Below are positions 10,601-54,235 of a DNA stretch of 64,000 nt, piece after piece. The notes beneath the pieces are model-generated. The model made no database searches, had not been told where the DNA came from, and saw nothing but the letters and a program-made list of their open reading frames with translations. The position numbers and the translations under genes are program-made. Every line of letters starts with the position of its first letter. The stretch's first letter is position 1. Origin of the DNA: Ophelia neglecta (Eukaryota); the NCBI GenBank assembly GCA_965285935.1, contig OZ260661.1, positions 103,354,001 through 103,418,000 on the forward strand. The letters are read 5' to 3'.

Positions 10601-13207
10601 CACACTAAACCAAGGTTTAAGGAAGGGGGGGGGGGGGGGAGGGTGCGTTCCAGAAAATTGTCTTTCAAAAATGGATACCTCTAGCCCTATGCGAAGAATT
10701 AGGTACCCACTTTCTTCACTGGTCAATTCACTGGAAAACTCTCGTAGTGCAGCTCTCTTGAACTGAATCTCCGAGTGGTCAAACAGGGGAATGTCCTTAA
10801 ACCTAAGTCTAAAATAAATCCGCAAAAGTTCTGTCGAGAAACCAGTGGTTTTAAGCCTAACAGGTGCATGCATAATCTTTAGCTTTCATGACTGCGTCGT
10901 GGTCTGTCGGCCTTGGTGAAAATACAATGGAGGCTCTAGACAGCTAGTATTCTTTTATATAATCGTTTGCCCCATTCAAAACCCGGCAAGGCCCCATATT
11001 AATAAAAAACCCATACTGTCGGGTCCTTTTTAGTTCCACTAAAACTACAATTAACTGTGTGGCACTCCGTTCAGCAGTTGTTATTTCCATAAAGGCGTAC
11101 ACAGTCGCCATGATGGCGGGATTCTGAAATTATTAGGCACTTGAGTGAGCCAGACTTGGCCTGGAAGCTAGCTACGACTTGAAACCAGGAAGCTTTGTGT
11201 TTACCAGTTCATGTGATTCACGCAGTGAGACGCCATGAATGTACTTCTATGAGCGCAAATATTATGCACCCAGATTTGACTACAGGCACATCACACAGGA
11301 ATATTTATCCAAGCGCTTTATTTGGGGATAAAGCGAAGGAGCCGTCTACATAGTAGACTATATAGGGATTGATAAATAAGTGATATTTCAGGTAGGCCAT
11401 CGGACTTAATTATTCATGAATTCGTCTGGCAGTATGTGCATTCTTCTGTTGCAGTCGTTGGGTTGGCATCTTCGATCGCCAATTGATATATTTCGATCAA
11501 ATTGCCTTCACGTTGTAACGTTGGTCTTTGAAACTACACGAATTCGTGTGCCTAATGATATGGTTTGACGCTGTGCACGTCAATATTCTCTAAATGGCGT
11601 CGTGTGGAAATGTCAGAGGCACATCGGCAAATTAAGGCTTAGTCATACAACGGAAGCTTAACATAGCACTCTTGCATTGATGTTTTCTATTTTTGTCCAC
11701 ATCGCTAAAAATTATTTCTAAATCCCATGTGTGTTCATATTATATTTATGATTGTACCAAAATGGTATGGCTTAAATAAAATATGGGCTTACTTTCTCCA
11801 TGCCTAGTTAATTTATGAAACACCCGCATCATGCATGCTAGGTTAGTGTACACTATACTTTAACTATTATTATCATAAAGTATCTCGATTGTATTTGTTT
11901 GGACAATGAGTCTTCGGCCATCCTCGTCTGTTCCTACACCTCATTAACTCTTGGCTTATACATATATTAGATAGATCTATGTACAGACATGTGACAGATG
12001 TCGTGTTGTTGTCTGCGGGCGCCGAAAGCGATGTGAGGACACACAAGTGTCCCTGTGGCCGCTCGAACTTCACAAAGACACAAAGAGGCCATAAGATTAT
12101 ATTGGTTTTGAAAAAGATAAAGCCATACTCGCCGAACTTTTCTGGCGTGTGTTGCGAAAAAGTCAACAGTCCATATGACAGAAGGTATTTACGCCCTTTG
12201 AAGGTTTAAACAACAGATTCTTTTGTAAGTCTATAGGTGACAGACATGAAGTTCATGTAAGAGTCAGAGGCTTTATCCAGCTAATATTTTGGCAGTACGA
12301 CAGATTTATTAGTTACATTTCTGGACTCATTGTTCTCGGACATAACATGCATGATATGGCGTTCGAAAAAAAGGTGACATTGGCATAGATTCAAGGCCAA
12401 AGAAGTGCGTATAAGACCAAGTATATAATCTGATAACTGATCAAATACCTTCAGTTTTACACTAATACAGGTGTTGTTCATGCGTTTAAAGACTTGCTCA
12501 AGAATATGGGAGATTTGCCTTCATTAAGTTCAGTAGAAAATTTCTTTAGTGTCCACATTTTTATAAAGAGATCAAGCCATAACTGCCCTGCATGTTCAAC
12601 ACAAGATACAAGATATAAGTTTATATGGCAGAATAAGCCATAAGACCCCCCCCCCCCCAATGAAATAAATACTTGTATTAAGAATTCAACAGTTCTTGAC
12701 TATACAATATACAAACAAGTATTAAGAATTTAGTGTCCATCCATACCTTGCCTCGATCACATATAGCGGATGGCATATTGCCAAAGCGCAATGGATTTCA
12801 GAGGTCAAAGTTTAATGCGAAACACTTTTCCCTATAGCTTACTGGCCTTGTTTAACATCTAAACGTCAATAATGACGGAGACAATGGGCAGACTATTATT
12901 GTACCTTGTTCAGTTCCATTTCACATGTAGGAATCATGGTCATCTGTACGCGAGGGATCTGCAATTTGACGTAAAAACATGAACAACCAAAACACTCAGA
13001 GGGGACAAGGTCGGTCCCCGCAGTCGTCCTTACCATAGTCAAAATATTGATTTTCCAATTATTTCATTTGATGCCTGTGTAATAATATGGGTGCTTTTTC
13101 CCTTTCTACACTAATTTCGTACTCTATGACTTGGTAGACGTCTTTCTCGGATTCGTTATTTCATTTGATGTGTTTTTCTTTTCCAGTTGATACAAATAAC
13201 TTAGACA

Positions 13208-13522
13208 ATGACTGAGAAACAGGCTTATCCCCCTGAAAACACCGGTGCCCCGCCTCCAGCATACCCAGGTGGACCAGGTGGCCAGCCCCCGGCCCAGGGA
13301 TACCCCCCGTCCCAGGGATACCCCCCGGCCCAGGGATACCCTCCACCTCAGGGACAGGGATACCCACAACCACAAGGGTACCCCCAGCCAGCTCAGGGGT
13401 ACCCCCAGGGGTATTCTCAGCCCCAGGGGTACGCTTCTCCTGGGCAGGTCACAGTACAACAACCGGCAGGAATCTCCACTACCACGGTGGTAGTTGCTGG
13501 AGGGAACTGTCCTAAATGCCAC
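13208..13522 (+). CDS. BRI3: BRI3 (brain protein I3)-like paralog A, first coding exon (Pro/Gln/Gly/Tyr-rich N-terminus, PPAY motif, first CxxC)
   Basis: Acceptor ttttcttttccag ends at 13186; ATG at 13208; 105 codons ending VVAGGNCPKCH; phase-0 donor gtaag at 13523. Joins in frame to 14221. Confidence 0.9.
13283..13432 (+). repeat. Coding tandem repeat (QGYP/PPAQGY units) within BRI3-like A
   Basis: Repeated cagggatacccc-like units of about 15-24 nt translating to PPAQGY PPSQGY PPAQGY PPPQGQGY PQPQGY PQPAQGY PQGY SQPQGY. Confidence 0.85.
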
Positions 13523-14220
13523 GTAAGATGCTCTTATTTGGATTATTATAGAATAGTTAACTTATAAATATAAGTTATCTGTCATTATCAAATTTTTATT
13601 GACATTTTAGTTGTTAGGTACACCTGAACACTATCAATCATGTCGAAATGCCTACCTTTAATTTTTGAATACGTTGAATTCTTCAGGATGTCTATCCCAT
13701 AATGAACATTTGTTGTTAACAAGAAAAATATAAATAAATTAGACACTTTGTTAATGAGGTAAAAAAGCCGAGGGAAGTTTAAACGATGATCAGCCTTGCT
13801 ATATATATTGAATTTCTGATTTATTTGGAGAAAGCAGTGGCGGATTCAGGGGGGGGGGAGCCCCCCCCCCCCCATGCCAAAAAGTGGGCCTGGACCAGGG
13901 CCTATTTTCGGGCCCACGCAAGGTGGTTTTAGAGGGTTGGTAACGGGGACAATCCAGACATTTGCCTTCTCAGCCTTATAAAATTTGATGTTTTACTGCA
14001 TTATACCTATGATTAATCATTAAAAAATACTGGCTAAGATATTAATATGGTATTCGTAGGTACATGTTTATTGGCCTATTTCTCTTCGAACCATGAAAGT
14101 TTAATTATACTACGGTTGTACTTTGCCAACTATGGTAAAATATTCATTCCTCACACAGTTTACCTTCGAAAGATGAAATTATTTAATGTGGGTGATAAAG
14201 TGTTTCCTTTTCCTTTTCAG

Positions 14221-14349
14221 AGCGGCGTTTTAGTTGAAGAATTTACCTGCTGTGGAATAGTGTTGGCCATTTTGTTTTTTCCCCTTGGAGTTTTGTGTTG
14301 TTTCTTGATGAGGGAGCGTCGCTGTAGTAGCTGCAACGCTTCATTCTAA
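14221..14349 (+). CDS. BRI3: BRI3-like paralog A, last coding exon (hydrophobic segment plus second CxxC)
   Basis: Acceptor ttccttttcag ends at 14220. Exon reads SGVLVEEFTCCGIVLAILFFPLGVLCCFLMRERRCSSCNASF*, matching the BRI3 C-terminal pattern CxxC.GVL...FT..GI.LAI..FP.G..CC...R.RRCxxC.A.F. Spliced product is 147 aa. Confidence 0.92.
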   Translation, partial: SGVLVEEFTCCGIVLAILFFPLGVLCCFLMRERRCSSCNASF

Positions 14350-18940: not shown

Positions 18941-21780
18941 GTATGTTTTTTCTACTAAAATGTCCTATTGTGTCAATGTTTTGTAAATTTTCACTTTGAA
19001 GTAATGTTGATATAAATCGTTAGTTGTTACTCGAGTGAAACGCCCGCTTGAACACTGAAGTGATCTAGAAGAAAGCATTATTTTTATTACTAATTTTTAT
19101 TACAGCAATATCTTTAATATATTGCAGTTGTTGATTCGCTTATATACCTACACAAGCGAGAACGAAATATCACTATAAGAGGAATATGTACCCTGTCTAT
19201 CTGGTGTACTAGTGCCAAAGCTTTACTCTACTGGCCGCATTACCCATATATATATGTAAAATTAAATCAGTAAACTAATGGCAAATACAGGAAACAAGTG
19301 TTAACACTAATTCTAAAACAGGTATAAACACTAATCCAATTCATGGAATAAAAACTAATTTCAGCTGACATTGTGCTTCTGATAGGAAAACAATGTCGAT
19401 GAAAAGAATCACCCACATTATACAGACAAATTTTGTACATCTTTCCACGCTGGAAACAGAACTTATATAAAATACACTCTTTTCTTTGTGCTTAAACAGC
19501 GTATAACACCATATTATAAGTGGCATAACATCAATTCCTTTTATATCCACAATGCACCTATTGACCATTTGTTTACGCCGATCGTAAGAACCAAACATAG
19601 TGACTCTTACACAAATCTCCGGTTTTCCAGACAGCTTTTTTTGCATGCAAAATTTGATTTACTCATGTAGTAAGCATCAATGTCCTGTCTGTTTAAATAA
19701 TAGTCAATCATACTTTTATCATTTTGATAATCGTGCCAATTTAGAAGGCATTAATTGCTGTTCTATTACGGATTGCAAGACCTCAATAAGCATATTTTGA
19801 GTGTGTTTCATTTTGAACAATCGTACCGAAAGCCAACCATTGATTTTGAAACTAAACTGAGGCTCGTATTTTAGATTTGAATTCATTGAATGAATCTATT
19901 AACCTTACCAAAGATTGTTATAGTCCCTACGAAAATTCCATTCAATGTCGATGAGCTATTTTTCAAAGTTTGTGTTGTACATATTATTGCACCGTTCTCT
20001 TGATAATTTTCATCTTACTCATACACATTTGGTTTAATCTTGCATGATGTTCTCATTGGTCTGTCTCTTCTAATTTAACTGCTTTTTAAAATTCATTCAT
20101 CTAATATAATGTGTGCAATATCTTTTAAACAGCTCAGTATAATAAATATGAATATACACTGTCTTTCTAGTATAATTATAAGGGACTGAAACATAGTTCT
20201 TTCAGTCAAACAGAAGCGTAGTTTTGATATGATTTACATTGTTGGGCTAGGGATATTAAGTTATGTGCCTCCTTTCAACTTTGGTTTATTTGACATGGTA
20301 TATATCTGCTGCAGTCATGATTTATGCCCAATATCTGTTAAAAAGATCTGATTCTTGAATATTTTTTTAATGAAGTACATGTATATGCATTATTGAGCAG
20401 AGAATGACCCTTATCTTAAATGCCCACTGACAAACAGGCCGATATAATTTTTAAAAATTACCTTAATTGTAGAAATAATTTTTTGTTCAAGTGGATTGGC
20501 TTTTTGCATAATTCATTACTTACAATTGTGCTATTATTTTTAAAAGAGGCATGGATAAAATGGACTTATATTATGAAAAGTAAAATTACAAATGATGTGC
20601 TATATTTAAAAGTGTCATAGACAGTCTAAAGATGGATAAAAAGTGAAAGAGGGCATTTTTGCTTTTCTTTAGTTTTCAAGCATGCTAAACATAGCCCACG
20701 ACCTTCTTAGATGAAGGACTTCCTTTCTTCGTGTGATTATTTTTTAAATCCCGAGAACATGTTTATTTAGCACTGCCTTTGAATTATATTGCACTTACAC
20801 TGTATTCTGGCTTTTCGGTGGGCATTTCACCCCCAATAAGAGCTGACAGGCGGGCATCCTCCAAATTTGAAGCCAATCCTCTTAGATCCGTGTAGGCTGC
20901 TGTGTCCTTCGCAATCTTGAGTTAGATTCTTACTCTGCTTTAAGGACTACTAGTCGTGTGGAAACTCACTCAAACCACGGTTGGGTGAAACAAATACCTG
21001 CGTAGTCTAGCATGGGAAATACGGATCAACACTCATCTCAACTTTGGCAGTGTTTATCTTATCAATCAGCCTGTTCTTTTAACTTACCTATCAACTACGG
21101 TTTCTAGACAACTTGCTCAACGACAAAAATTGACTGAAATAATTGTTACTAAAATTGAGATGAAATCAAGCACTGTGATGGCACGAGTATATATGAATGT
21201 AACCAGCATCATTCTGCTATAAATTCTTACCAAACACTTATTATCGACATATTAGACGGTGTGGCCTGATGGTGATATCACTTCTATGTTTTCCATTTTA
21301 CTAACTGCATTACAAATTTCTTTGCTGATTGGGAACTGGGGATTGATCTAATAATATGTCTAATAATATAATATATTTTTGCTGGTTCCTGGTTATTTTA
21401 GGCCGATACGATGGAATATTCTGGATTAACGATCTTGTTTTGTGCGCAAGATATCGACTCCCGTCTTTTAAAACACAGGCTAACCGGGGGCATATCGGAA
21501 TATTATGTTTTTCCATATGCAGAACTGCTTGATACCAATGACCAGTCAATTATTATTCAAAATACATAGAAACATAATAGTCAAACTAACCTCTATTGGT
21601 TTACAAGCTTACAGTTCCTATCAATGGAACACAATCTTTCAGTGCGAAATTTTGTTTTCAATGATTTACTCATTAGCCAAACTCGATACTGTGAATCCTT
21701 GGCTATTGTATTGTTTCCCATTGGTTTCCTTTTCATGGTGTCCTTACTTCAACTTAATTACAAATGTAATTTCTTTTAAG

Positions 21781-22085
21781 CGGGCAATGAGAACGAAGTG
21801 AAGACACAGTGGAATAACCAACAAAAGTATGATGGCCCACCTCCTCCATATCCGGGGACGGGTCATCCGCCGCCAGCAGATGGTCTCCCCCCGGGATATT
21901 CCCCGGCGCCGCCCGGGACGACCTACCAGTATCCTGTCCCGGGAGTGGGTATGCCACCCCCGCCCCACGGACAAGCCTCATCACCGGGATTTAACCGGTC
22001 AGCATACACTACTGTCCAGCCTGTTCTATCCATACCGACTATTTCTACAACAATAATAGTCAGAGGAAACTGCCCTGGCTGTGGG
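21781..22085 (+). CDS. BRI3: BRI3-like paralog B, Pro-rich exon (PPPY motif, first CxxC)
   Basis: Acceptor ttcttttaag ends at 21780. Reads GNENEVKTQW...DGPPPPYPG...TTIIVRGNCPGCG; phase-0 donor gtgag at 22086, the same position as in paralog A. Confidence 0.88.
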
Positions 22086-22274
22086 GTGAGATCATTTTAT
22101 AATTTACGTGGCAATACATATTGAATGACAAAAGATGAATTGCAAATGCAGGTGGTAACGCTTTTAGGATAAGATTAACATAAGACTAATCTGGATAAAT
22201 GATTTGTCTTTGTCTGCCGGGTATCCGCTCCCGTTTTGTGAAGTAAAGTTTTCATAATAACATTTGTTTTCTAG

Positions 22275-22403
22275 ATTGGAACTCTTCGTGATGAATTTAC
22301 TTGCTGCGGAATTGCTCTTGCTGTTATATTCTTTCCAATTGGTTTAGTTTGCTGTGTATTGCTACGAGACAGAAGGTGTACACACTGTGGAGCGTCTTTC
22401 TAA
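22275..22403 (+). CDS. BRI3: BRI3-like paralog B, last coding exon
   Basis: Acceptor ttgttttctag ends at 22274. Reads IGTLRDEFTCCGIALAVIFFPIGLVCCVLLRDRRCTHCGASF*; coding length 129 nt, identical to paralog A. Not in the ORF track. Confidence 0.92.
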   Translation: MGTLRDEFTCCGIALAVIFFPIGLVCCVLLRDRRCTHCGASF

Positions 22404-26558: not shown

Positions 26559-27126
26559 AAATGTATGTAGGGCTATTCTACACTGCATTACCCTGCATTG
26601 GTAAATATCAATCAGAAATTAAGTGTTGTATAATAAACGTATAGTGACCGCATTATTATCAATAAATCTGTTTCTCTCTTTTGGTTCAGCTCCTTAGCTA
26701 TTTAATGGTTATAATATACATGGCGTATCTTTTGACGGTGTTGATGGGGGGCAACTACATAACCAGCTTGTATCCTAGGCCGATACGGTTATCAGGTCTA
26801 CAAGTATCCGTGTACCCCGTACGTGATCTCACATGGTCATATCAAATGGGGTCTGAACGAAAAGCCAACCTCACAATCAGTTTTGCAAACACTATTGTAT
26901 TTGCATTTGATCGATTGCAGTAATATAATAGATACCTATGAGTGAATGGTTGGTAGCTTTTGTTTTCATAATTTCAGTGAATAACTGACGGGAACAATTT
27001 GTTCACGGCTTTAAACTTGCCTTATATACTTGAGGATTTAAACTAGGCTCGACTATAATGTTGTAGTTAAATCATATTCAAAGCAGGCTAGAGAAACTCG
27101 ACATATTAGAATCACATTCCGCGATA

Positions 27127-28767
27127 ATGGATTCAAGAAGAATTATGCGCAAACACAACCATATACTGAGGCGTCAAAAGCATGAGGAAAATGAAAAAAA
27201 TAGATATCTGGACTTAATACAGAAAGGCCTCCAGCAACAGAAGCTAGATCGAGCACAACAACGTACTTATGAGAAGAAATTAAAAGAGTACAACCTGAAA
27301 ACAACTATTTCTGCCCTGGAGAAAGCAAATAGGCTTCATAATGATCAGCGAAGAGCGACCAAACGCCGAAAGAAGTCCGGGACAATCAAGAAGCGCAGGT
27401 CAAAGCCTTCTTTCGTTAGTTTAATGTCTGACAGTCCAATCGCTCCATCTGATTCCCCGAAATCAAACCTTGTGGAAAAGACAGCTAATATTGCAGGGAA
27501 CGCAAGAGACGAGTTTGTTATTCCAACGTCAGCTAGTAATGAATACACTACGCCAGCTAAGACAGACGGCACTGCTTCGTTAACTTCAAAACTCTCAATG
27601 CTGGAAATGGATTCTGGTGTTTCTACAGACGACACGGAGATCGCGCAAGAAGACTTTAAAGAAGAGAAAAACATTACGTCAGAGGAGGTCAAAGGGCATG
27701 TGCGCGCAGTTTCCGTCTGCTCAGTGTTTGATACAGCTGATTTGCGGTTGAGTTCAAACAACAAGGTCGATAGCGGCCGGAAAATGAAAAGCCGTGATCA
27801 ATCCCGTTACCACTTTGCAGAAGAGTATAAAACTGATCATAACGGAGGAAGAACACCTGCGTCAATACCAAGGAAAGTGAGAGCCAAGCGTCCTTTAAGA
27901 CAAAAGGACTCACGAGAATATACCCGAGGTTATTCCATTGTAGAGCAAAATTATCTCACAACTGGGGAGTCTTTACATGTACAAGGAATAAACCTTGGTC
28001 GGGCGCTAACGGTCCGCCGATGTTGGAATAATGAGCCGGAGGCCATTTCTTCCGTCAGGCGACCGATCCCTACTAAACAGGAAAGTCACCTAAAGAAAAT
28101 GGTAACTAAGTTATTTGATGAAAAACCTGTAAACTTTTCCGCATCTTCTCCTGCAATTGAGCACAAGCGCTTTATTCCACCGTACCCTGTCTACTTTAAG
28201 TCGGCAGGAAAAACATTACAATGGGTGAAAGGCACATCGCTATGTCTAGAACGTCAGGCATTATCTATGCACCAAGACAAGCGACCACACTCGGCGTACA
28301 CGAATACTAGTCAGACGACAGGAGCAGACACAGGGCGCGTATACCCGAATCTCACGCAGACGATACACAAACGACCGGTTAGCGCCCCCGCGAAAACCGC
28401 GGCCATTCCGCACATGCCAAGTCCTCCACCTGCGAGGGATTCTCCGTGCCCTCTCAAAGTGGACGTGTCTACGGAAAAACTCAGGTTAAGGGCCAGATCA
28501 GCTCCAGTGGTAAGACGGCGAGCGACCAGTGCAAAACCACGCCCCAGAACGATAAATGAGGACACTTCACCTAGAGATCTCTCATCGAGTTTAACCGACA
28601 CCAAACTACAAGAAACTACACACTCGAATCGTCCTTATGACGTCAAAAGAGCCGGGTTGCCGGAGCAGGGCTCTGATTCAGCGGAAGTTGTATTTTCAGA
28701 CTCATCCGCAAGCAGCGACGAAGAATTTGTTATGAGAGTAGTTGTTACAAAAAAAAAATCTGGGTAA
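27127..28767 (+). CDS. Uncharacterised 546-aa protein: N-terminal coiled coil and basic NLS-like patch, Ser/Thr/Arg-rich disordered remainder
   Basis: 1.64-kb uninterrupted ORF in AT-rich DNA with ataATGG context and raised GC. An upstream acceptor (ttttcataatttcag, ends 26977) suggests a 5' UTR intron. Confidence 0.8.
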   Translation: MDSRRIMRKHNHILRRQKHEENEKNRYLDLIQKGLQQQKLDRAQQRTYEKKLKEYNLKTTISALEKANRLHNDQRRATKRRKKSGTIKKRRSKPSFVSLMSDSPIAPSDSPKSNLVEKTANIAGNARDEFVIPTSASNEYTTPAKTDGTASLTSKLSMLEMDSGVSTDDTEIAQEDFKEEKNITSEEVKGHVRAVSVCSVFDTADLRLSSNNKVDSGRKMKSRDQSRYHFAEEYKTDHNGGRTPASIPRKVRAKRPLRQKDSREYTRGYSIVEQNYLTTGESLHVQGINLGRALTVRRCWNNEPEAISSVRRPIPTKQESHLKKMVTKLFDEKPVNFSASSPAIEHKRFIPPYPVYFKSAGKTLQWVKGTSLCLERQALSMHQDKRPHSAYTNTSQTTGADTGRVYPNLTQTIHKRPVSAPAKTAAIPHMPSPPPARDSPCPLKVDVSTEKLRLRARSAPVVRRRATSAKPRPRTINEDTSPRDLSSSLTDTKLQETTHSNRPYDVKRAGLPEQGSDSAEVVFSDSSASSDEEFVMRVVVTKKKSG

Positions 28768-29254
28768 AATATAGAGGATTTGATTGAATATAAGCGACAA
28801 ACGTAAACTGCCAAATGTTTTTGCAAGTTTCCCTGTACATGCATTTGTAATCGTTTCTATAGTGTGTCTGCGTTAATTATTAATTAATCATACGCACAAG
28901 GTTATATGTTGTAGGGCCTATATTTGCTTGGTCTTTTAGTCAGTCTAAAAATGCAAAAGTTTGTGTTTAAAATTTAACAGGCTCGGTACTATTAAGAAGA
29001 GAAAAAATTTATTGAAAACATACCAACATAGTACGAAACGTTGTAAAACCGTCCCTTATAATCCGAACATATAATAATGAAAGCATTGGGCAAATGTGTT
29101 GATAATATCTGTTAACCATTAATTAAGTGTAGCTCAAATTCTGTGGTGAATTAAATTTACAGCTGGTTGATTTCTACTAACAGTCTCACACTTTTATTTG
29201 ACAGTCATCCATGGCAGTATGAACCCTGAAATGGAAAACTTCAGGAGTAACCCA

Positions 29255-29416
29255 TCAGGTTGTTGTTGGATGGTCAGCCAGTACTTTTCTTTCTAGTCCT
29301 TCAGTCATTTTATTCATAATGAAATTGCACACGTGGTCCCACGATTCATCCACCTCCTCGGTGTAAATGTCTTTCAACTCAACATGGAGTACAGGTTTAA
29401 GCGCCGGCCAAAACGT
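29255..29416 (-). CDS. Globin, exon 3 (helices G7-H)
   Basis: Acceptor cacttgcag on - ends at 29417. Reads TFWPALKPVLHVELKDIYTEEVDESWDHVCNFIMNKMTEGLERKVLADHPTTT*, with the typical H-helix pattern YT.E...SW.....FI...M..G. Confidence 0.9.
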   Translation of the reverse strand, partial: TFWPALKPVLHVELKDIYTEEVDESWDHVCNFIMNKMTEGLERKVLADHPTTT

Positions 29417-29728
29417 CTGCAAGTGAATATAAACAGAGTCTGTAGAACTAAAATGTATATAAGGTAAATATACATTAATTTCTAAGTCGCTTTGGGCGGG
29501 TTGGATGATTGCCTTGCATGCATGATTCGATTATCTAAATAAATATAAATGGAACAATATTGGTTTTCAGACAAAAAACATGCAGTCTATTATTGATCAC
29601 ATGTACACATGACAAAACTGTGCCAATCTGATTTTTTTTTTAATATAGAAAATGGTAGATCTAAATCAAGTAATTATTTTTATTTGGTAAGAATGTAGCA
29701 AAAGTACATTGGAAGTTTTTTAAGCAAA

Positions 29729-29806
29729 AGAGAGAGACAGAGACAGAGACAAAGAGAGACAAAGAGAGACAGAGAGAAGACAGAGAGAGACAGAGAGAGA
29801 GACAGA
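29729..29806. repeat. (AG)n/(AGAC)n microsatellite in globin intron 2
   Basis: agagagagacagagacagagacaaagagagac... read directly. Confidence 0.9.
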
Positions 29807-32484
29807 GGCTGCCATGTAGAAATAAAAATCACAAAGAAAAATTAGTTAATCTCTTTTCCAAAATTTGTACAAGAAATATAAGGGTGCACAACATATACAC
29901 GAGAAGCGACTAATCTGTTTTGCGGTTATATTTCCTTTTGTATAAATACGGCATCGATGTCTCCTTTTTCCGTAATGTGATGAGGATATTTCATCAATAT
30001 TAATGCCGCAATCAAAAAAATCCCCCGGGCGCTCATATTAGCCTGCACGGTACTGGGAACTTTGCCATACCATTCACTGGGCTGCGCCATGGCAGATATG
30101 ATGAGTTATGATTTGATTGCAAGAAACTTATTCCACCAGAGCGTTATCAGCACCATTCACCAAACCCCTCTCTTGCTACAACTTGTATATACATGTAGGC
30201 CCCTACTGACTATCTGTAGGATTTTGTTATGATTTTCGATCTCTTCATTTAGTCCTATTACACATTTAACGTTCATATTCATTGCCAATCATTAACCCTA
30301 CCACCGAAGTCTTCAGGATGTTGTTACTGCTGATCAACATTCTAGTAAAGACGGTAACTTTCTAGGTCAAATTGGAACTGTCTTAAAAAGTATGCAAAAT
30401 TGGGAAGGGATCTTCGTACAATGCATTAAATAGATGTGATGTTAAAATAAAACACCTAGCCATCAAGTGAAACCTCTATCACCATATAGTTAATTCACTT
30501 AGTATGCTATATGGCAAGTACATTACCATTTTTTGTGCAGAATGAAAGCAGGGGTGACCGTTTGCAGTGGCCCGTTACTCCATGCGCGGTAGAAACACTG
30601 AGGAATTCGATTTTCAGTGTATAACTTGCCCATGTATCTATAGATTGCTCTAACTTTACCGATAATTTCAAAATAATAAACACAGGTATAACGCAATGAT
30701 GTAACCCTTAAATCCGAAGTGGACTCGATTCTGCGATCCATACAAAGCGTACATAATACAGGCATGTATTACGCAAAAAGAACATCTGGGTACTGTTTGA
30801 AATGGGGATATTTTCTGGTTATTTTTCTTGTAGCATAGCTTACTAACTGTTAAAATTAGAAATTTAATAAAGCCTATACTGAATAGCTGTGTTCATCATT
30901 TCACTTCCTGGCGACGCCTCGGGAAACAATAACTTCTCCATCAGCCGATCTTTTATTAGTTTCTCTCTGCCTATAAAACACAGACAACCAGCTTAGGCAG
31001 TGTGGCCTACTTCAGTCTCGATAACAAAGAAAAGTGGTGCAGTGTGCCAGATAGCCAGCAGCATTCTAGGGGGGGGGGGGGGGAGGGGGGGCAGTGAAAT
31101 GCGAAACGCGCTCTTCGACCAACATGCAATCGTTTGAAGGACACAGCTGCAGTTTTGTCTCAACAGAGACATAGTTTGTGTCGATATTAGATATCGGACT
31201 GCTACTTTCTGATAGCCCTTCTTGAATAAAACTTTCCTTGCACGGTATGTATTTCCACGCATGTCGAAACTTAGGAAAGTGCTCATCCAGTTGAACAAAA
31301 CTAGAACGTTCAGCATGTAATGGTGCTGGCTCTCATATTAACAGCTGTGCAAAACGACTTAATCTAAAACGACATCTTATTCTACCGAGAGCAAACAACG
31401 GAATTGTCTTTGTATAAAACTAACGTGATACATTTGCCAATTATTTTGCCAGTTATGGTGTATTGTATATTCATTGTTGAATATAATAAATATGGAAATG
31501 ATGCAGAAAAATTACTACTCCACTAGTAGGTAGTTTAAAGAACGTTTGGTCGCTACTGGAACCGACAATTTTGAGGCAATTTTCAATTAGATGCAATGTG
31601 GGTCTCACCAAAGTGAGAAAGTCTTATGTTATACTCACACTCTTGGCTTCCAAGTCCGTTCCTATTTGATACATAAAACGAGTCGCACTAATTATATTTT
31701 ACCCTTAAAAGTTGCTAAATATGTAACTCAAACATGAACAAAATATGTACACCGTAACTATGGTCACTGATTTACGGAAAATTCCTTTCCACTGATGATG
31801 CCCTCTATATCTCCACGGGGGTTTTATACAGTAATAACATGTCCTTGAAAGTCTCCACGGAAATCTTAATTATTGCTGGTTTCGTTCATACCAATTCGAC
31901 TCAATATAATGGCATTAAGTTCACATTGGTTTATCAATTTACACGACCATTTATACCTATCGAAATTCCATATAGTTTGCCGTCTCCCCCCTCTCCAAGC
32001 TCACTTGCATGTTAAAATATCGTATTTGCCCAAATCGCATTTATCCATAAATAATTGTAAGCTATACTTTCCATCTTATTTTTACAAAGACTGTGGTCGT
32101 CACTACAACGTTCAATTAACGCTTTTAGCAAATATCCCAGAGGCTATCGGGGCATTATTTATCGCATGAATAAATACATGGACAAAATGTCATGTACAAA
32201 TTGCGGCTCGATTGTTGCATATTGATCACCACGCCATTTTTATTACTGTTAATTTACACTGGCAGTCGTGTTGCTATCATTGGCACTCAATATTATGCTT
32301 ACATAGTAAACAGGCATTACATTTTATATTATCTTTTCATTATGGTCGCCAACTAAGTCCCTAGTGAAGTAAGAATGCCAGCGTTCAGTCATAGATGTGT
32401 CGGAAGAGTCTTGAGCATGCAAGTGCGGACAGGTCAGATTCGACCAAATATACACTAAATCGATTGTAGATTAACTTTTACTAC

Positions 32485-32737
32485 CTGAAACATGGACGTC
32501 TGGACACTGTATTTTTGATGGGCTTGACCGACTTGTCGAATGGTCTCCAAGTGTTCTTCAAGGTTGCTCTCGTTATCCAAACCTTCAACACATTCGCCAA
32601 ACAGTTGCATGACCATGTCAACATGAGGCCGGAACTTCCGCTCGTCAATATTTATACCCGCATTCTCCTCCTCGACATCGGTTGGCAAGGCGAACGGCAC
32701 AAACAACTGTTTCATCTCTTTGTCTATTTCAAACATT
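32485..32737 (-). CDS. Globin, exon 2 (B12-G6; CD1 Phe, distal E7 His, proximal F8 His)
   Basis: Acceptor tttgtttgcag on - ends at 32738, phase 2. Reads (R)MFEIDKEMKQLF...KFRPHVDMVMQLF...VGQAHQKYSVQTSMFQ; phase-0 donor gtagt at 32484. Confidence 0.92.
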
Positions 32738-33029
32738 CTGCAAACAAAAACAAAATAAACAAAGTTCAAATATTTTCCTAAATGAAGATAGGCCTTGTTT
32801 GGTAAATTCCTCCGATGAAAAAGAAACATATTTTTAAATGTATCTTTTAAGGCAACCTCTTATAGACATGGCTCGTTTTTCGATTCAACATCCAAACAGA
32901 AGACGACATAATGTTAATAATTTTTCATTAGATATCATTATGTACTTTTTTCTTTGTTGTTCAACAGTGTACTTAATTTCAAACGGCTTACCATTTGCCT
33001 AACCGTGGCCAATACTCACTTCTGCTACA

Positions 33030-33430
33030 GGCACACAATTCTGTTTGGAAAGGGCTTTGTCTCACCGATTTCAAAGACATCAAATAGAGCCCAACTTATA
33101 CCTAAACAGATCGTAGGCTATCTTAGGATAAGTCTATCATACTGCCCTGCCAAACTTTGCCTTTAACAAATCTTAGCAGCACTAACAGAATAACACATTT
33201 CTTGGAAGAAAAGGGAGATATAGTAGAAGAACAGCATGGTTTTTGAAAGAAACAAAGCTGCTTAGATCATATTCGGACTAAATGACAATAACCCACTTTT
33301 ATCGCTTTGATAGATTTCCAAAAAACTGCCGTTAGGGTCGATCGTTATTTTTATCGATTTCATGGATATCCAAAAAACTTCTGTTAGGTTTGATCGTAAA
33401 TTTTTGTTATTCAAACTACTTGTTAACCAG
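33030..33430 (+). mobile_element. Decayed LINE reverse transcriptase fragment in globin intron 1 (antisense to the globin)
   Basis: KGFVSPISK...YLRISLSYCPAKL; NRITHFLEEKGDIVEEQHGF*KKQSCLDHI; FIALIDFQK...VDR; FLLFKLL match consecutive non-LTR RT motifs. A small internal duplication lies at about 33317-33345 / 33369-33397. Confidence 0.8.
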
Positions 33431-35980
33431 ATATAGATGTTTATGTATTTAAATGTATTATGAATGCCTTAGCAATTTTCCCCAACTGTATTTTCTATCT
33501 TTCCAAACGATTAAGCCAAAAAGATCAATATATGGAACTTTGCAGCAGTGTGTGGTTCCTGGGATAAAAACATTATAATTATGGGAAGTATCTAGTTTTA
33601 TGATGACGGAAAAGCCTTAATTGTACCGTATGACAAAAAATACAAATCATGTCCCATCAAAATTTGGCCTAAATGCTTGGAGTTAATCAGGCTCAACATT
33701 TTTCATTTCTAACCATAAAGAACTGATGGCACTAACACTCTATTCAGGATTAGTTTATGCCTCACTGTAATGCAGACTTGTTCTCAAAAACCTCACACAG
33801 AGATCTCAGAACAGTTGTCTTCAATTTAAATCGACAGGTTTTGTGGTCTAGTTAACATGTGCAAAACTTTTAAAATATTGTGTTTGTGTTCAGGAATGGA
33901 TTTTGGTTCTAGTAGTAACATATAATTACAATGGCGCATTTTTTGGTTTGGTTGAACCCAATTTATTTAAGATCTAGTCAAGAAAAATGGGCATTATTCT
34001 GCATTTTGCTTTCTCAAAGAGACATTTTAATAATGTCTAAATTTCTGCTAATATTACTATGTCAACTTTATTTTTTCTACACTGTTCTCACTAGGACAAC
34101 TTCCATTTTTCCATTCGTTCCATTTTGAGCTTAGTTACGAATATTAAAAAAAGTATCGTAAAATGTGTTAAAAGCGGCTGAGGTTATTGAGTATAGGTTT
34201 CAATAAGCTGTGTTTTTGGACGTTCATTTTCAACTCTATGAAGTCGCAAAGGTATTGTGGGGCCCCAGTAATATACCCGCCATACCTCTTACACTACAAT
34301 CTTTACTTGTCTCCAGTTTGCATGCCACATCCGTTTTTAATACATTCAGGGACTGTTCGATAAGGTAAACCCAGGGCATATAGATACAGCCATCATTATG
34401 ATGGAAACCAAATATTACACTAGCCAAAAAAAAAGTCGCTTTGTCTATTCATGATGTTCTATTAGTTGGTCCAACAACCCCGTATTTGTCTTTGTCTTAA
34501 TTTCAAGGCCAAACCAGTGAAAATGGATTTTAACTTTATTTTAGTCCAAGCAAACTTGAACACACTTTCCTGCAAGCTATTAAGCTATCCAGATGAATGT
34601 AATTACAGCAAGGGAGATGCTTATCATATATATGTAAATGTTGATGATTTTGTCACACCCGTCACTCAGTGTCACATCCGTCTTTGTATAACTTCAGATC
34701 AATATGTTAATTTAAAAACTTATTGGTATTGCATCAATATTCAATTGTATTTCTTAAAGAAAGAAGTAGAAACACTTATTTTATATTACGTTTATTTTCC
34801 CAAATTCATGTAATATCATCCTTCCTCCAAACCTTTTAATAAAGATCATTCGTGTTCAAATAGTTTGAATTTTAAGAAAAATCAGTTTTTCCAGAGAACA
34901 ACGGCTAATTGACTACTCTTCATTACAGAATAGCTTTTAAAATAGGGGACTTAACTATAGCATTAAGGTGATGCTCAAATTATGTTGGGCAAACGTTCGA
35001 TTGTAAAGTAATTATAAATATTACAACATGGGCTTATTTTAACGATACAATCAACCACAAGCTGGGGGCGAGCGGGTTTGTAGGGCCCATAAGGGACTTG
35101 TCCCTGCGTTACTTGTTCACATATTAAATTAGTATGACGATGACCGGACCCAAAGAGTAATCCAATTAGATGTTATTAATGCTTAAGGGAATTTAATGAA
35201 CAGTTGGAAAAGCCATCTGCTAGCGTGCTCTAACTGAGAACCGGCCTTGATCGAATCGTCTTATATCAAGTCAGACACTATTGCAAGAAGCTAAAGATTG
35301 CCAGCTTATTTTATACCAGAATTAGATTTGATTGGGTCTGGGCTATTTTATGGCATAATATGGAAACGAAGGCATGATGGGTGTGTGCGTTTTTTTTTTT
35401 GGGGGGGGGCTATCATATGAATCAGGAGGCATGCAAAGCGACCCTACCTAGCGGATTATCAATTACTGATACCATATGATTAAGGGGGGGGGGGTCATGA
35501 CTGCCTCGCCCCGTTTTTCCCTACTCTGAGTCCGCAAATGAGTTCTCAGCCAATGTTTTCGCAGTATTCTAGTCACAGAAGTAGCCACCGGGGCGCATTT
35601 CCCTCATCGCTCATGCCGAATATTGTGAGCGTGACTTATTTACCTGAAGATCGAGCGGCACACGATAGCAAACATTCTTTCAAACGAGATGCACTTAAAT
35701 TCAATTAAGCCTATCACTCCATGCAATTGGAGTTGGTTTTCTAGCTGCTAAGTCGATATTCTACCAACTCCAGTGACACCGATATCGCCAATAACTAAAC
35801 ACATTTTTTCTAATTTTCCAGGTATTGAATAGCCTATGCCCAGCAAATGTCAATTAGGCCTATGTACTTGCATGATTTGACATGTTATCCATATAATATG
35901 ACCGGTATTTTTTATATACGATCATAGCTATAGATAAATTACCCCTGTCGAGCTTCCATAATGAATAAAGAATAGCTTAC

Positions 35981-36156
35981 CTGGTGAATATCTTCAAGCC
36001 ATTGCCGGCCCTATCTTCTGCTATGATGGCCCACGAATCTTTCACTATCTCTATCTCTCGGAGAGTAGGGGTGTCTCTGGTGGAGACAGGCACGGGGGAG
36101 TTAGACGAACTACAGCGGGTCGCTTCGGCAACACTATTGCTGGAAGAGCATCCCAT
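35981..36156 (-). CDS. Globin, exon 1 (MGC N-terminal acylation motif, Ser/Pro/Thr linker, helices A-B); globin X-like / membrane-anchored globin
   Basis: ATG at 36156 with an in-frame TAG just upstream. Reads MGCSSSNSVAEATRCSSSNSPVPVSTRDTPTLREIEIVKDSWAIIAEDRAGNGLKIFT(R); donor AG|gtaag at 35980 is phase 2 at B12. Exon lengths 176+253+162 = 591 nt give 196 aa. Confidence 0.9.
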
Positions 36157-39100
36157 AATGTCCGGCGTCTGCTATTCGGGGTCAATGGCTTGACCTTGAT
36201 GAGGATGGTAGGTGTCCGCTAGCGACCGGAGACATGCTGCATCAACGTTCGGTAGATTAAAATGCAATAATCGTCGGTGGGTGTTGTCTTGGGCGGTTTG
36301 ATACACACCGCTATCGATTCCTGTTGGCACTATGGTGATTTCCAAACAGCGGAGGCATATCGACTTCCAGCCTTGTCATACACAGAAAAGAAGCGTTTAG
36401 CGCGGCAGCTTCTGTATGTTCCCGTGACGCGAACTATCTATTTAAAGCATAGGCTACGGGTTGCATCAATGTAAGCTTTGTTGTCATAACCCTGATGGTT
36501 TGTTACTCAATGGCGTGTGGGTGGCTATTATAGTATAAAAAGTAGGCGTGCGACTGATGGCGGGTCATTGGGGTGACGATCGGGCAGGATAACCAAACCA
36601 AAGATGTATATGGCTGAGGAGAGACGCTCCATATACTGGACGCAATGCGTGTAACGCTCACCTTCTTCATATGTACATATCATAGTACAGAAGCCTATGA
36701 AATATTAATATTAAAGCATGCACCACTCATTCGCAGAAAGAGGTCATTATTATAATCAAGATTTTTTGTGTGGTTATAATTCACCAGCTAGCAGATTGTA
36801 TACATCAAGCGTGTGTGAAGGTCAGCAGAAATCATTGTTTGGTAATTCGAAATGAAAGATAAAACATATTCAAAGGGCATTTAATACTTAAACAATTAAG
36901 TAATTTCTGTCCACTCTGGTGGGGCTGGTGCATTCTTTGTGGAAAAGTTTAGCACCCACTTCCTGGACCCCGCAGAAATAGGTAGAAAGCTTGTGATAGG
37001 CCGTAAAAGGTTGATTCCATTGTATTGTAATATTGAACGTCTCGTCTAGGGCCTACAGTGTATAAGCTATTGTTATTTATCTAAAACCACCTTCTTTCAA
37101 TGCATGTTACTGAGAAACAAGCAGATCTTTGACCTAGTAAAATTCGGCTTATTTACATGCCTTAATTAGGCCCTTAAATACTATCATATAGAGATATACC
37201 TGCTTGCCAGCACGTGGGGTCTACGCTTCGCCACCGTCAATGCAACTTCCGGGTAATTTCCATTTCTTTATTAGAAAGCTTGTTTTTCACATTTTTATAA
37301 GCGTCCGACCGAAAATTCAGCATGAGCATCAGATGACAGGATGGCATATCAACAATCCAGGTAAAACAGCCAGAATGGAAAAAATAATCAAGCAATGTCG
37401 TAAACATTGTATCTTATTTAGTCTATAAGACTACCGACGTTTCCTGCGCAATGCTTTGGACGTTGGGCGAATAAATATCCGAGAGCTTCACTGTTCAAAT
37501 GCACGTGTAAAAGTTTTGAGACGGAGCTGTTAGCACGCTTTTTGGTGAAACTCAAGGGTTGGTGGTTGAGGCTGCCTCACCGCAAAATGAACGCCAAGGA
37601 TCATGCTTTATTATCAGATATGGAGCATGAAATAATGTTTAAAGAATCGAAGTACATATGACATGGTTATTTGCCTCATTGGACAATGTTTCGGAGACTA
37701 TATAATCCCAAAATCAGTCAAACTTATAATGATTTTTTTAATTCCAAACCTTATCATTTTATGATTGGAACTAATTTAGCCTATACGCTATCAATACCGT
37801 ATACTTAATAAGACTATTTCTGGAATGTACGGAATTCGATGTACGGAATATAAGTAGGAATTTAAGCATTTTCATGTTTCAAATTGATGTCACTTAATAA
37901 ATAATTGAGTTATGGCCATAAGTGTTTAACATTTGATATCGTGTAAGATGGTGTGCTTATATTCCTTTAAAAGTGGGAAAAAGGTTAATTACTATTTTAT
38001 GAAATCCGCTTAGAAGGATGCTTTTTACCTTAGCAGTGTTACTCCGACGACCAATGCTCGTAGAAGATACATCTCTTAATTGTATTGTGTAGATACAATC
38101 CTTGATAAATTTTTTTTTTATTACCAAACGACAAATTCATATACAAAGCGGGCCTCAAAAGAAAAAAAGTGCCCCTCAAAATTAATTACGACGATATTCA
38201 GAACCAACATGGAGCTAATTGGGAATTATGGCGCTCTGTATTTCACCTAGTATACATCGATGATGGATTGAATCTAGACCAAATATGTTATGTGACCTTG
38301 TTTCAAATGTTATTGATTAATTAATATACGTACTTAAATTGTTGTATTTTATAATTTAATACGATTCCATACTTGCAGAAAACAGTGGCTACTTAATACT
38401 TTCTAGAGCCGATGTCGGAGTAATGTACTTTTATGACTTACCAAAACAATACCAGGAGTTTATTTGTGCAACTGGAAACATTTATCGTCGTTTCACTTTG
38501 CAGATATATCAGCCCTTTTTTGGCAAGCGTTTACGACATGGCTGGTAACAGGTAGTTTGTTTGATTACCCGCCCTGCGTTTCACTGTCTTCGCACTGAGC
38601 GAGTGACACTGTGTGATCAGATGGAAAAGTCAAGGTTGGAAGGGCAGAAATGTACATGTCGTCTGCTGGCCAACTGGCTACGTAATCCGATACCAGAATG
38701 GTTTGTGCACGGACTAACGTTACATTCAGCTCCAAGTGCGGTAAATTATGTTGCCATTATAAAATTAACGCTCTATCTCTGCAGAGACAATATATTTCCA
38801 TACATTATCTGCCATCTAAGTAAAAAGGAAGCCCTGATGAACTGACGGCTGCCACTCTACCATCACTAAAATGGGAACAAACCGCGTATGGATAAAACAG
38901 TTTGATTTATGCATTCGAAAAAAAAGCATGTTGTCCATTTTCAACATAGCAGTCGACTTCAAAGTGGGCCAAATTCTTACTAATACACTCGACTTTTAAT
39001 GTGTGCTTTAAAATCCACCTACCCCCCCCCCCCCTCCTCCCCTTTTTCGAAGATTTGTTGATTGATTGACGGACTTAATGATGTTAATAATAAATTAATA

Positions 39101-52500: not shown

Positions 52501-52789
52501 CGTTTACGTTGTCATCGTCGCAGCCTTCATTAGAGAACCAAATCTTCTTATTGTTTGCTTTGTCCTCATCACAGATATAATGCAGAAATTTTATTAGATG
52601 ATAGCAAACCCGTCCAGCGACAGTTATCAATCACCACGAAAAGGCCTAACGCGTTCAGGACATAAATGAAATTGCTATTGATATGACATTTGTGTTGGGC
52701 ACCAGGAGCTCATCCATGGCGAATCGGTAACTACGCTATACATGGAGAAAAACAATGACATTTAGAAGTTGAAATCTAATCTAATAAGG

Positions 52790-54235
52790 ATGTCTTTCAT
52801 TGGCATCCAGTGCTGTGCATTTCTAGGGTGTCTCTTAATGATTCTAACGGCAGAACGACTGCCACTTTCAAGTGCCCATACACCAGCTCCCGTGGGCTGT
52901 TTGAGTACTTCAAAGAATGGGTCTGCGTCAGGAGATGCGATGTCGAGCAAAGCAAATATTACCTCGAAAAGGAGGTATTCCATGTCGAAATGCACAGAGA
53001 ACAATTCAGACATTGACTTTAAAACAAGAGAAGTTTTTCTCCATGAAGTGGATAATTATCATGTAAACTCTGACCGATCGCTTCAAAATGAATCGCTGGG
53101 GACTAACACGACAGGTAATCGCCAGTCAGGCTCAGTACCGCACATTTCGTGGCGACTTAAATTGAAAATTATCTGTGTTCCATTTTTCACTGTGGTTGGA
53201 CTTTTTGGAAACGGACTCTCTTTTATCGTCCTTTTTTCGCCTGTGTATCACAAGAAGTCATACACGTATTACCTTCGAGCTTTGGCCATCTTTGACACCT
53301 TTACATTAATTATCACTCTCATTCTGACGGTTAACGAGTTAATTTACCAGATGACAGGAACGGGCTTCATGGAAGGACATAATTGGATCTCGTGCAAAGT
53401 CACGGAATTCTTACGTCACGTGATATACCTGATGTCGTCGTGGCTGGTTGTTTTGTTTACGGTGGACCGTTATATTGCCGTCTGCCACCCTCTTCAACGC
53501 GCCAGAGTTTGCACTGCTAGTGGAGCCATCATAACAACCTTGGTATTATGTGGAATAGCAATGTTGAGCCAGGTTTACATTTTTAGTTTTATAGATCGAC
53601 TGGACCGGAATGGCGACCATCCCTGTCACGTTCCCATCTACTTCACCAGGAGCAATGAAACCGCGGAATGGGTGGAGAAAGACACCAGTCATCGACTGAG
53701 GTACTTCGCTCTCCAATATTTTTGGTTTAGTTTTATCCTTCGGTTCATGCTGCCTTTCGTCGTCATCGCCGTATGTAATGGTCTCATCATGTTCCACATC
53801 CGGCGTATGCGATACAACCAGAAATGTCCACACAACAACGTATGTATTCGTTCATGCTACAACCAAAATTCAAAGGAAGGGGAAAGGAAACGGAATGCCA
53901 ACATGGCTATCTACACATTGTTTCTCGTCTGCTCGGTCTTTGTGCTGACCCTCCTGCCGAACGCGATCATATCCATGATTCAATTTATTGGGTATTTTCT
54001 AAACAAAGAAAAATCGTACGATATGTACAAGAAGCTCCTGCTGATAAACACGCCTTTTCAAATGATACGCCTTGTCAATTACTCGATGAATTTTGTACTC
54101 TATGGTTTGACCGGAAGACAGTTCAGGAAAGAAGCCCGGAAGTTGCTCACGTGCCGCTTCAAAATGGGTAACTTGAATGGAAAAATGAGAGACTTTGTTT
54201 TGCAGCAGCGCCTTGTAGGTCATAGAAATGACTAA
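52790..54235 (+). CDS. Class A (rhodopsin-like) GPCR, FMRFamide/sex-peptide-receptor-like peptide receptor; single coding exon
   Basis: Seven hydrophobic segments with TM1 GLFGN, TM2 YLRALAIFD, TM3 C...SSWLVVLFTVDRYIAVCHPL, TM5 FMLPF and TM7 NYSMNFVLY followed by helix-8 GRQFR; N-terminal N-glycosylation sequons. The listed TTG start is not eukaryotic; the first ATG is 52790, with alternatives at 52940 and 52982. Confidence 0.92.
   Translation: MSFIGIQCCAFLGCLLMILTAERLPLSSAHTPAPVGCLSTSKNGSASGDAMSSKANITSKRRYSMSKCTENNSDIDFKTREVFLHEVDNYHVNSDRSLQNESLGTNTTGNRQSGSVPHISWRLKLKIICVPFFTVVGLFGNGLSFIVLFSPVYHKKSYTYYLRALAIFDTFTLIITLILTVNELIYQMTGTGFMEGHNWISCKVTEFLRHVIYLMSSWLVVLFTVDRYIAVCHPLQRARVCTASGAIITTLVLCGIAMLSQVYIFSFIDRLDRNGDHPCHVPIYFTRSNETAEWVEKDTSHRLRYFALQYFWFSFILRFMLPFVVIAVCNGLIMFHIRRMRYNQKCPHNNVCIRSCYNQNSKEGERKRNANMAIYTLFLVCSVFVLTLLPNAIISMIQFIGYFLNKEKSYDMYKKLLLINTPFQMIRLVNYSMNFVLYGLTGRQFRKEARKLLTCRFKMGNLNGKMRDFVLQQRLVGHRND

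Follow-up and report, generated by a model that had tools for sequence, protein, structure and literature searches.

The 64,000-nt stretch analysed here (the window, part of contig C1 in a genome of 762 Mb) carries on its minus strand a globin gene that, judged by its open frame and canonical splice sites, is real and intact. By sequence it groups with the spiralian-specific globin clade Sp-gb, as a diverged second copy beside the canonical Sp-gb gene of the same genome. We propose, with fair confidence, that this annelid copy encodes a protein with myristate on Gly2 and palmitate on Cys3, which performs haem redox chemistry on reactive oxygen species or NO at the membrane and is not an oxygen carrier.

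Gene structure, haem pocket and acylation motif

The features of the gene, in the direction of transcription, are:

36172..36174, minus strand: in-frame TAG six codons 5' of the ATG
36139..36156, minus strand: start codon and MGCSSS, predicted signal for N-myristoylation (Gly2, Ser6) and S-palmitoylation (Cys3), by pattern match
35981..36156, minus strand: exon 1 (coding, 176 nt), with acylation motif, Ser/Pro/Thr-rich linker, helix A and helix B to B12
32738..35980, minus strand: intron 1 (3243 nt, GT-AG, phase 2, position B12.2)
32485..32737, minus strand: exon 2 (253 nt), from the end of helix B to G6, with Phe71, His97, the EF insertion and His132
32638..32700, minus strand: extended acidic CD region (26 residues from CD1 to E7, 17-21 outside Sp-gb)
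32623..32625, minus strand: His97, distal E7, by alignment to paralogs
32518..32520, minus strand: His132, proximal F8 haem ligand, by alignment to paralogs
29417..32484, minus strand: intron 2 (3068 nt, GT-AG, phase 0, position G7.0)
29255..29416, minus strand: exon 3 (162 nt), with helices G and H, Trp146-Pro147 (G9-G10) and the stop codon TGA
29193..29198, minus strand: AATAAA, candidate polyadenylation signal, by sequence

As proposed in the initial annotation, the three exons join in frame to 591 nt (196 codons plus TGA, with splicing predicted from the DNA) free of internal stops. Intron 1 interrupts Arg59 (B12) and intron 2 lies between Gln143 (G6) and Thr144 (G7); alignment to paralogs confirmed both positions. 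Exon 1 pairs with exon 1 of the canonical Sp-gb paralog, and exon 2 reads through helix E with no central intron. Exon 2 is also the only one of the three to show up among open frames of at least 100 aa, as the initial annotation had remarked. This exon alone matches the Pfam Globin profile (PF00042) with 24.7 bits against a cut-off of 22 (E = 3.5e-5); exons 1 and 3, scanned singly against Pfam, gave no match. With this profile hit on exon 2, Phe at CD1 and His at F8, all three marks by which we recognised a 3/3 globin are present, and 30 of 30 Atlas matches are likewise Globin. The three sequencing runs considered are contigs of one sample that behave as genomic DNA and are uninformative on expression: they contain no joint at either predicted intron, and at least two of the 40 variants listed lie in coding exons, both synonymous (a weak indication from one sample).

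The pocket residues named earlier recur in the alignment to paralogs, with Trp42 at A12, Phe57 at B10, Phe71 at CD1, His97 at E7 and His132 at F8; E11 is Val101. AlphaFold gave a poor model of exon 2 alone (mean pLDDT 61.5, limited to helices E and F), and a model of the relative from Mya arenaria (pLDDT 83.6) served as a stand-in for the fold search. In the latter the globin fold is confident and the CD region, of low confidence in the predicted models, less so; the nearest structures are cytoglobin and neuroglobin at 20-29% identity. No solved Sp-gb structure was found among the structure matches, and a PDB sequence search with exon 2 gave a best E of 0.16.

The N-terminus is MGCSSS as claimed (Gly2, Cys3, Ser6) and conforms by pattern match to the MGxxxS/T with nearby Cys that marks acylated membrane globins. 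Among the 2684 ATGs of the window, the globin start is the only one followed by the remainder of MGC-x-x-S/T; the same MGC-type motif is seen in Sp-gb relatives. In proteins with such a motif, Met1 is removed, N-myristoyltransferase acylates Gly2 and a DHHC enzyme acylates Cys3, and the two lipids keep the protein on the cytoplasmic leaflet of the membrane. The protein is strongly acidic (net charge about -15, pI 4.75), the most acidic of the 25 globins computed (some of them partial). As a basic patch near the N-terminus is absent, membrane binding would depend on the lipids alone. Fish globin X has also been reported in red-cell cytoplasm (PMC7475203, a review, in excerpt), so the motif is no guarantee of a membrane location.

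The in-frame TAG six codons upstream makes an unspliced N-terminal extension impossible. A spliced upstream coding exon that buries the MGC motif could use an in-frame AG 13 nt 5' of the ATG, but this AG lacks a pyrimidine tract and the start context is good (A at -3, G at +4). The gene might also be a silent, decaying duplicate; against this stand its open frame and canonical splice sites, the retention of all haem residues and an exon 2 that is 58% identical in another animal. Taken together, we regard other splicing or decay as improbable.

The window holds further genes on the plus strand. Two tandem genes resembling BRI3 (brain protein I3), with Pro-rich N-termini (Pfam PF10164), lie at 13205-14349 and 21780-22400, and a single-exon rhodopsin-family GPCR (7tm_1, E = 7e-22) at 52766-54235. 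At 27067-28767 we found a basic low-complexity open frame of 566 aa with no Pfam match, which is convergent with the globin gene, their stop codons being about 490 nt apart.

Placement in the spiralian clade Sp-gb

Sp-gb was described as a spiralian-specific globin clade by Song et al. 2020 (PMC7771090). According to excerpts of that paper, its members include Capitella CAPTEDRAFT_192439, Platynereis Pdu_Sp_gb and Lottia Lgi_159879, three of the eleven published members are scored as dual-acylated, and Platynereis and Capitella have one Sp-gb apiece. Searched against the genome, exon 3 matches a single other place (C1:109634239, 42% identity, E = 2e-6), which belongs to the canonical Sp-gb paralog, and the same paralog ranks first for exon 1 (E = 0.002). 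The last exon of this paralog retrieves CAPTEDRAFT_192439 (our row P0011) at 78%, tabulated as Sp gb in the part of PMC7771090 supplement file 7 consulted. The Capitella protein in turn retrieves an MGC globin of Mya arenaria (XP_052814039.1), assigned to Sp-gb by the tree computed here. In BLASTP against 30 other globin rows the canonical Sp-gb paralog was the best match (35% identity, 113 bits), followed by P0001, a frame from another animal (107 bits), Mya (85.5 bits) and Capitella (71.6 bits); the best row outside Sp-gb, from clades I-IV, reached 68.6 bits.

The initial annotation had suspected a poorly characterised invertebrate clade and proposed a phylogeny, which we computed. In the 31-row tree the globin and P0001 join the canonical paralog, P0011 from Capitella and P0013 from Mya at 99/99, outside clade III/globin X, and the grouping persists at 97/95 after removal of the CD insert, the termini and three long rows. 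The end branch of the globin is short (0.18-0.21). Among the rows are three canonical Sp-gb sequences and zero from clade V (neuroglobin) or vertebrates, and one of the 11 published Sp-gb members entered as sequence; clade labels of paralogs were set by eye, according to their resemblance to Capitella and Platynereis sequences in the portions of PMC7771090 supplement files 6 and 7 used. The suspected clade is thus Sp-gb by the tree. Membership in globin X was ruled out: an approximately unbiased (AU) test rejected union with clade III/globin X (p = 0.020), clade III being two genome paralogs labelled by their likeness to Capitella Cte_188542, with no vertebrate GbX row. Union with clade IV was rejected as well (p = 0.017), and the clade IV mark, Phe at E11 (11/11 clade IV rows), is replaced by Val101 in our globin. 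The E10.2 intron of globin X is absent, a weak test in that the two clade III genes of this genome also lack it; the neuroglobin-type E11.0 intron is absent, too.

We further devised two sequence marks for Sp-gb that do not stem from PMC7771090, Trp-Pro at G9-G10 and a long CD region. Trp at G9 occurs in all four Sp-group rows having a G helix and in none of the 26 other rows, and Trp-Pro was seen by eye in 9/9 published Sp-gb sequences reaching helix G. The spacing from CD1 to E7 is 26-40 residues in five Sp-group rows versus 17-21 in 26 others. Our globin shares with Sp-gb its tree position, both of these marks, the two histidines at E7 and F8 and the MGC start, and its host is spiralian by gene content.

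It might instead be a fast-evolving gene of clade II (globin X-like) or clade V whose likeness to Sp-gb reflects convergence or long-branch effects. Union with clade II was not rejected (p = 0.065), globin X-like genes typically have an MGC start and no introns besides B12.2 and G7.0, and clade V is absent from the tree rows. On the other hand, the best trees place the globin on a branch separate from clade II, and it lacks the Glu-Glu-Pro type of G-helix start that the five clade II paralogs show. Such an origin, which we consider very improbable, is further countered by two trees that support Sp-gb and give a short end branch, by the Trp at G9 and long CD region common to Sp-gb alone, and by the genome-wide first rank of the Sp-gb paralog for both exon 1 and exon 3. 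By the combined sequence evidence the globin groups with Sp-gb.

A second Sp-gb copy among the globins of the genome

The canonical Sp-gb gene is located 6.2 Mb away on the same contig; its model has four exons and encodes an MGC globin of 189 aa. Its extra intron (phase 1) lies in a Gly nine residues after E7. The locus (L053, C1:109626183-109634406) thereby has a 221-nt intron in helix E, at about E16.1, that the Capitella orthologue lacks; an MGC globin of clade II begins 8 kb downstream (C1:109642404). We dismissed intron loss as a special event in the window gene: the Capitella genomic frame P0012 also reads through helix E without a central intron, and a gain in the canonical paralog accounts more simply for the one found there. 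To judge from these sequences, two introns are probably the default of Sp-gb.

Our gene differs from Sp-gb by its low identity to the canonical paralog, by an EF insertion, by an altered end of helix E and by higher acidity, and as a second copy it contrasts with the single Sp-gb of Platynereis and Capitella. The EF insertion comprises three residues (E7-F8 spacing of 35, compared with 32-34 in 29 other rows) and is otherwise found in P0001 alone; after E11 the sequence reads Gly-Glu-Cys-Val-Glu as opposed to Gly-Ala-Ala-Val-Glu in Sp-gb. P0001 was the best of five matches among 1.84 billion representatives (E = 1.2e-24, 58% identity). This frame of 96 aa spans exon 2 alone, so that the N-terminal anchor lies outside it, keeps both histidines and the EF insertion, and its likeness ends exactly at G7.0; by these features it is the same exon in another animal. 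Conservation of exon 2 at this level argues that the second copy is old and conserved. Of the remaining matches, P0002, P0003 and P0005 are multi-domain globins apart from our globin in the tree, and P0004, which is not a globin, was dropped. A word-index protein search with exon 2 confirmed none of 16 candidates, and a metagenome scan with the alignment of exon 2 and P0001 gave 596 pattern matches, of which none was confirmed, and no orthologue of exon 1.

All this identifies the gene, at the level of sequence, as a diverged second copy of Sp-gb beside the canonical one. The full tree places its branch as sister of annelid and mollusc Sp-gb together (98/94), the sole mollusc row being long-branched; the AU test did not reject a duplication confined to annelids (p = 0.138). 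It is a tentative idea, put forward with considerable doubt, that the gene founds a second Sp-gb subfamily, so far undescribed and dating back to the annelid-mollusc split, with the EF insertion and a highly acidic surface as its marks and a role in redox signalling switched by palmitoylation.

The genome contains at least 51 Pfam globin matches, from which 23 paralogs were modelled; the extracellular chains, one cluster of clade I genes and near-duplicates of other copies were set aside. Extracellular annelid-type haemoglobin chains are present and clustered on C9 (C9:13855105-13944673), with two erythrocruorin linker genes among them. Song et al. 2020 found linkers only in annelids with extracellular globins (PMC7771090, in excerpt); from chains and linkers together we infer that the host is almost certainly an annelid.

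The repertoire also shows how common the features of the gene are. Its two-intron structure is present as reported, yet it is no distinguishing mark: in each of the 11 clade I-III paralogs checked, the introns are GT-AG and confined to B12.2 and G7.0. Partial texts report the same structure for almost all arthropod globin X-like genes (PMC7457136) and agree with the initial annotation that central introns occur in globin X of vertebrates (E10.2; PMC7457136) and in neuroglobin (E11.0; PMC3087553). Nor is the MGC start, though present, a rarity, as it occurs in 15 of the 16 clade II, IV and Sp-gb paralogs with a modelled N-terminus (the remaining one has MGG), and 6 of 19 Platynereis globins are predicted to be acylated.

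Several other globin loci deserve mention. On C7 (3017595-3232721) we found a tandem array of about ten intronless MGC globins of clade IV (loci L007, L009, L011-L014, L016, L018, L020 and L036), some with short Pro/His/Gly/Asp repeats of variable number in the N-terminal linker; helices A to C are missing from one of the copies (L036). The clade III globin X-type genes at C12:10142499 (L025) and C8:79974937 (L029) are those without the usual E10.2 intron. At C2:80232942-80233283 (L037) lies a diverged, apparently intronless globin of the extracellular type with a signal-peptide-like start.

Proposed membrane redox function

The view of the initial annotation that the gene encodes a dually acylated, probably non-respiratory globin is supported, as a prediction, by motif and clade. 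Membrane anchoring and redox chemistry are likely by analogy with globin X and with GLB-12 and GLB-26 of C. elegans. In the available portions of PMC3176823, zebrafish globin X needs both Gly2 and Cys3 for membrane targeting and is hexacoordinate, and it forms a stable oxy complex with a P50 of 1.3-12.5 torr. Loss of the anchor weakens its protection against peroxide (PMC7475203, a review, in part). Acylated GLB-12, hexacoordinate as well, makes superoxide at the membrane (excerpts of PMC4686822), and myristoylated GLB-26 is oxidised almost instantly by oxygen (excerpts of PMC3520999). With zebrafish GbX our globin has in common the Gly2/Cys3 signal, His at E7 and F8 and an N-terminal extension, and by this analogy it probably works like globin X, from which it differs in clade and in lacking the typical E10.2 intron. 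The nematode proteins are functional analogues as acylated, membrane-bound redox globins, likened by description rather than by sequence, and belong to a nematode-specific radiation.

According to our proposal, removal of Met1 followed by myristoylation of Gly2 and palmitoylation of Cys3 would anchor the protein at the cytoplasmic leaflet, and a flexible linker of about 30 residues would place the haem domain at the membrane surface. His132 would bind the iron, and His97 would rather probably take its sixth site. With the help of a cellular reductase the iron could then alternate between its Fe2+ and Fe3+ states and in doing so use up NO or peroxides or make superoxide locally, and oxygen carriage would be left to other globins of the genome. 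Reversible palmitoylation of Cys3 may serve as a switch. Speculatively, a basic partner in redox chemistry or signalling would most likely dock on the long acidic CD region.

His at E7 occurs in pentacoordinate and hexacoordinate globins alike, so coordination is not readable from the sequence. An acylated Sp-gb could also be pentacoordinate and serve at the membrane as an oxygen buffer or sensor, with reversible O2 binding and no turnover chemistry. Phe B10, His E7 and Val E11 make up a myoglobin-type pocket, too, and globin X itself has its stable oxy complex. As a buffer, however, little protein would fit in the membrane layer, and the genome has dedicated respiratory globins, with extracellular haemoglobins, linkers and clade I globins as separate candidates for oxygen transport. 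Moreover, the characterised acylated globins considered here are hexacoordinate (globin X, GLB-12) or oxidised by oxygen almost at once (GLB-26). We therefore rate the buffer or sensor as unlikely and favour redox chemistry at the membrane.

Within the literature searched, which was short on subscription papers, the term Sp-gb appears in one paper alone (PMC7771090) and a functional study of the clade was not found among work on acylated annelid or spiralian globins; the excerpts of PMC7549130 and PMC8525914 contain nothing on Sp-gb. Sp-gb is thus a named clade that is functionally blank. The gene is, on the analogies drawn here, a new, diverged member of this known clade with a globin X-like action. 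The wider picture is unchanged by it, the majority of the host's non-respiratory globins being of the acylated two-intron type. It indicates that two Sp-gb genes of deep divergence persist in some annelids, and it supplies sequence marks for the clade. The second copy is a candidate for asking if acylated globins in general share the redox role that globin X has at the membrane.
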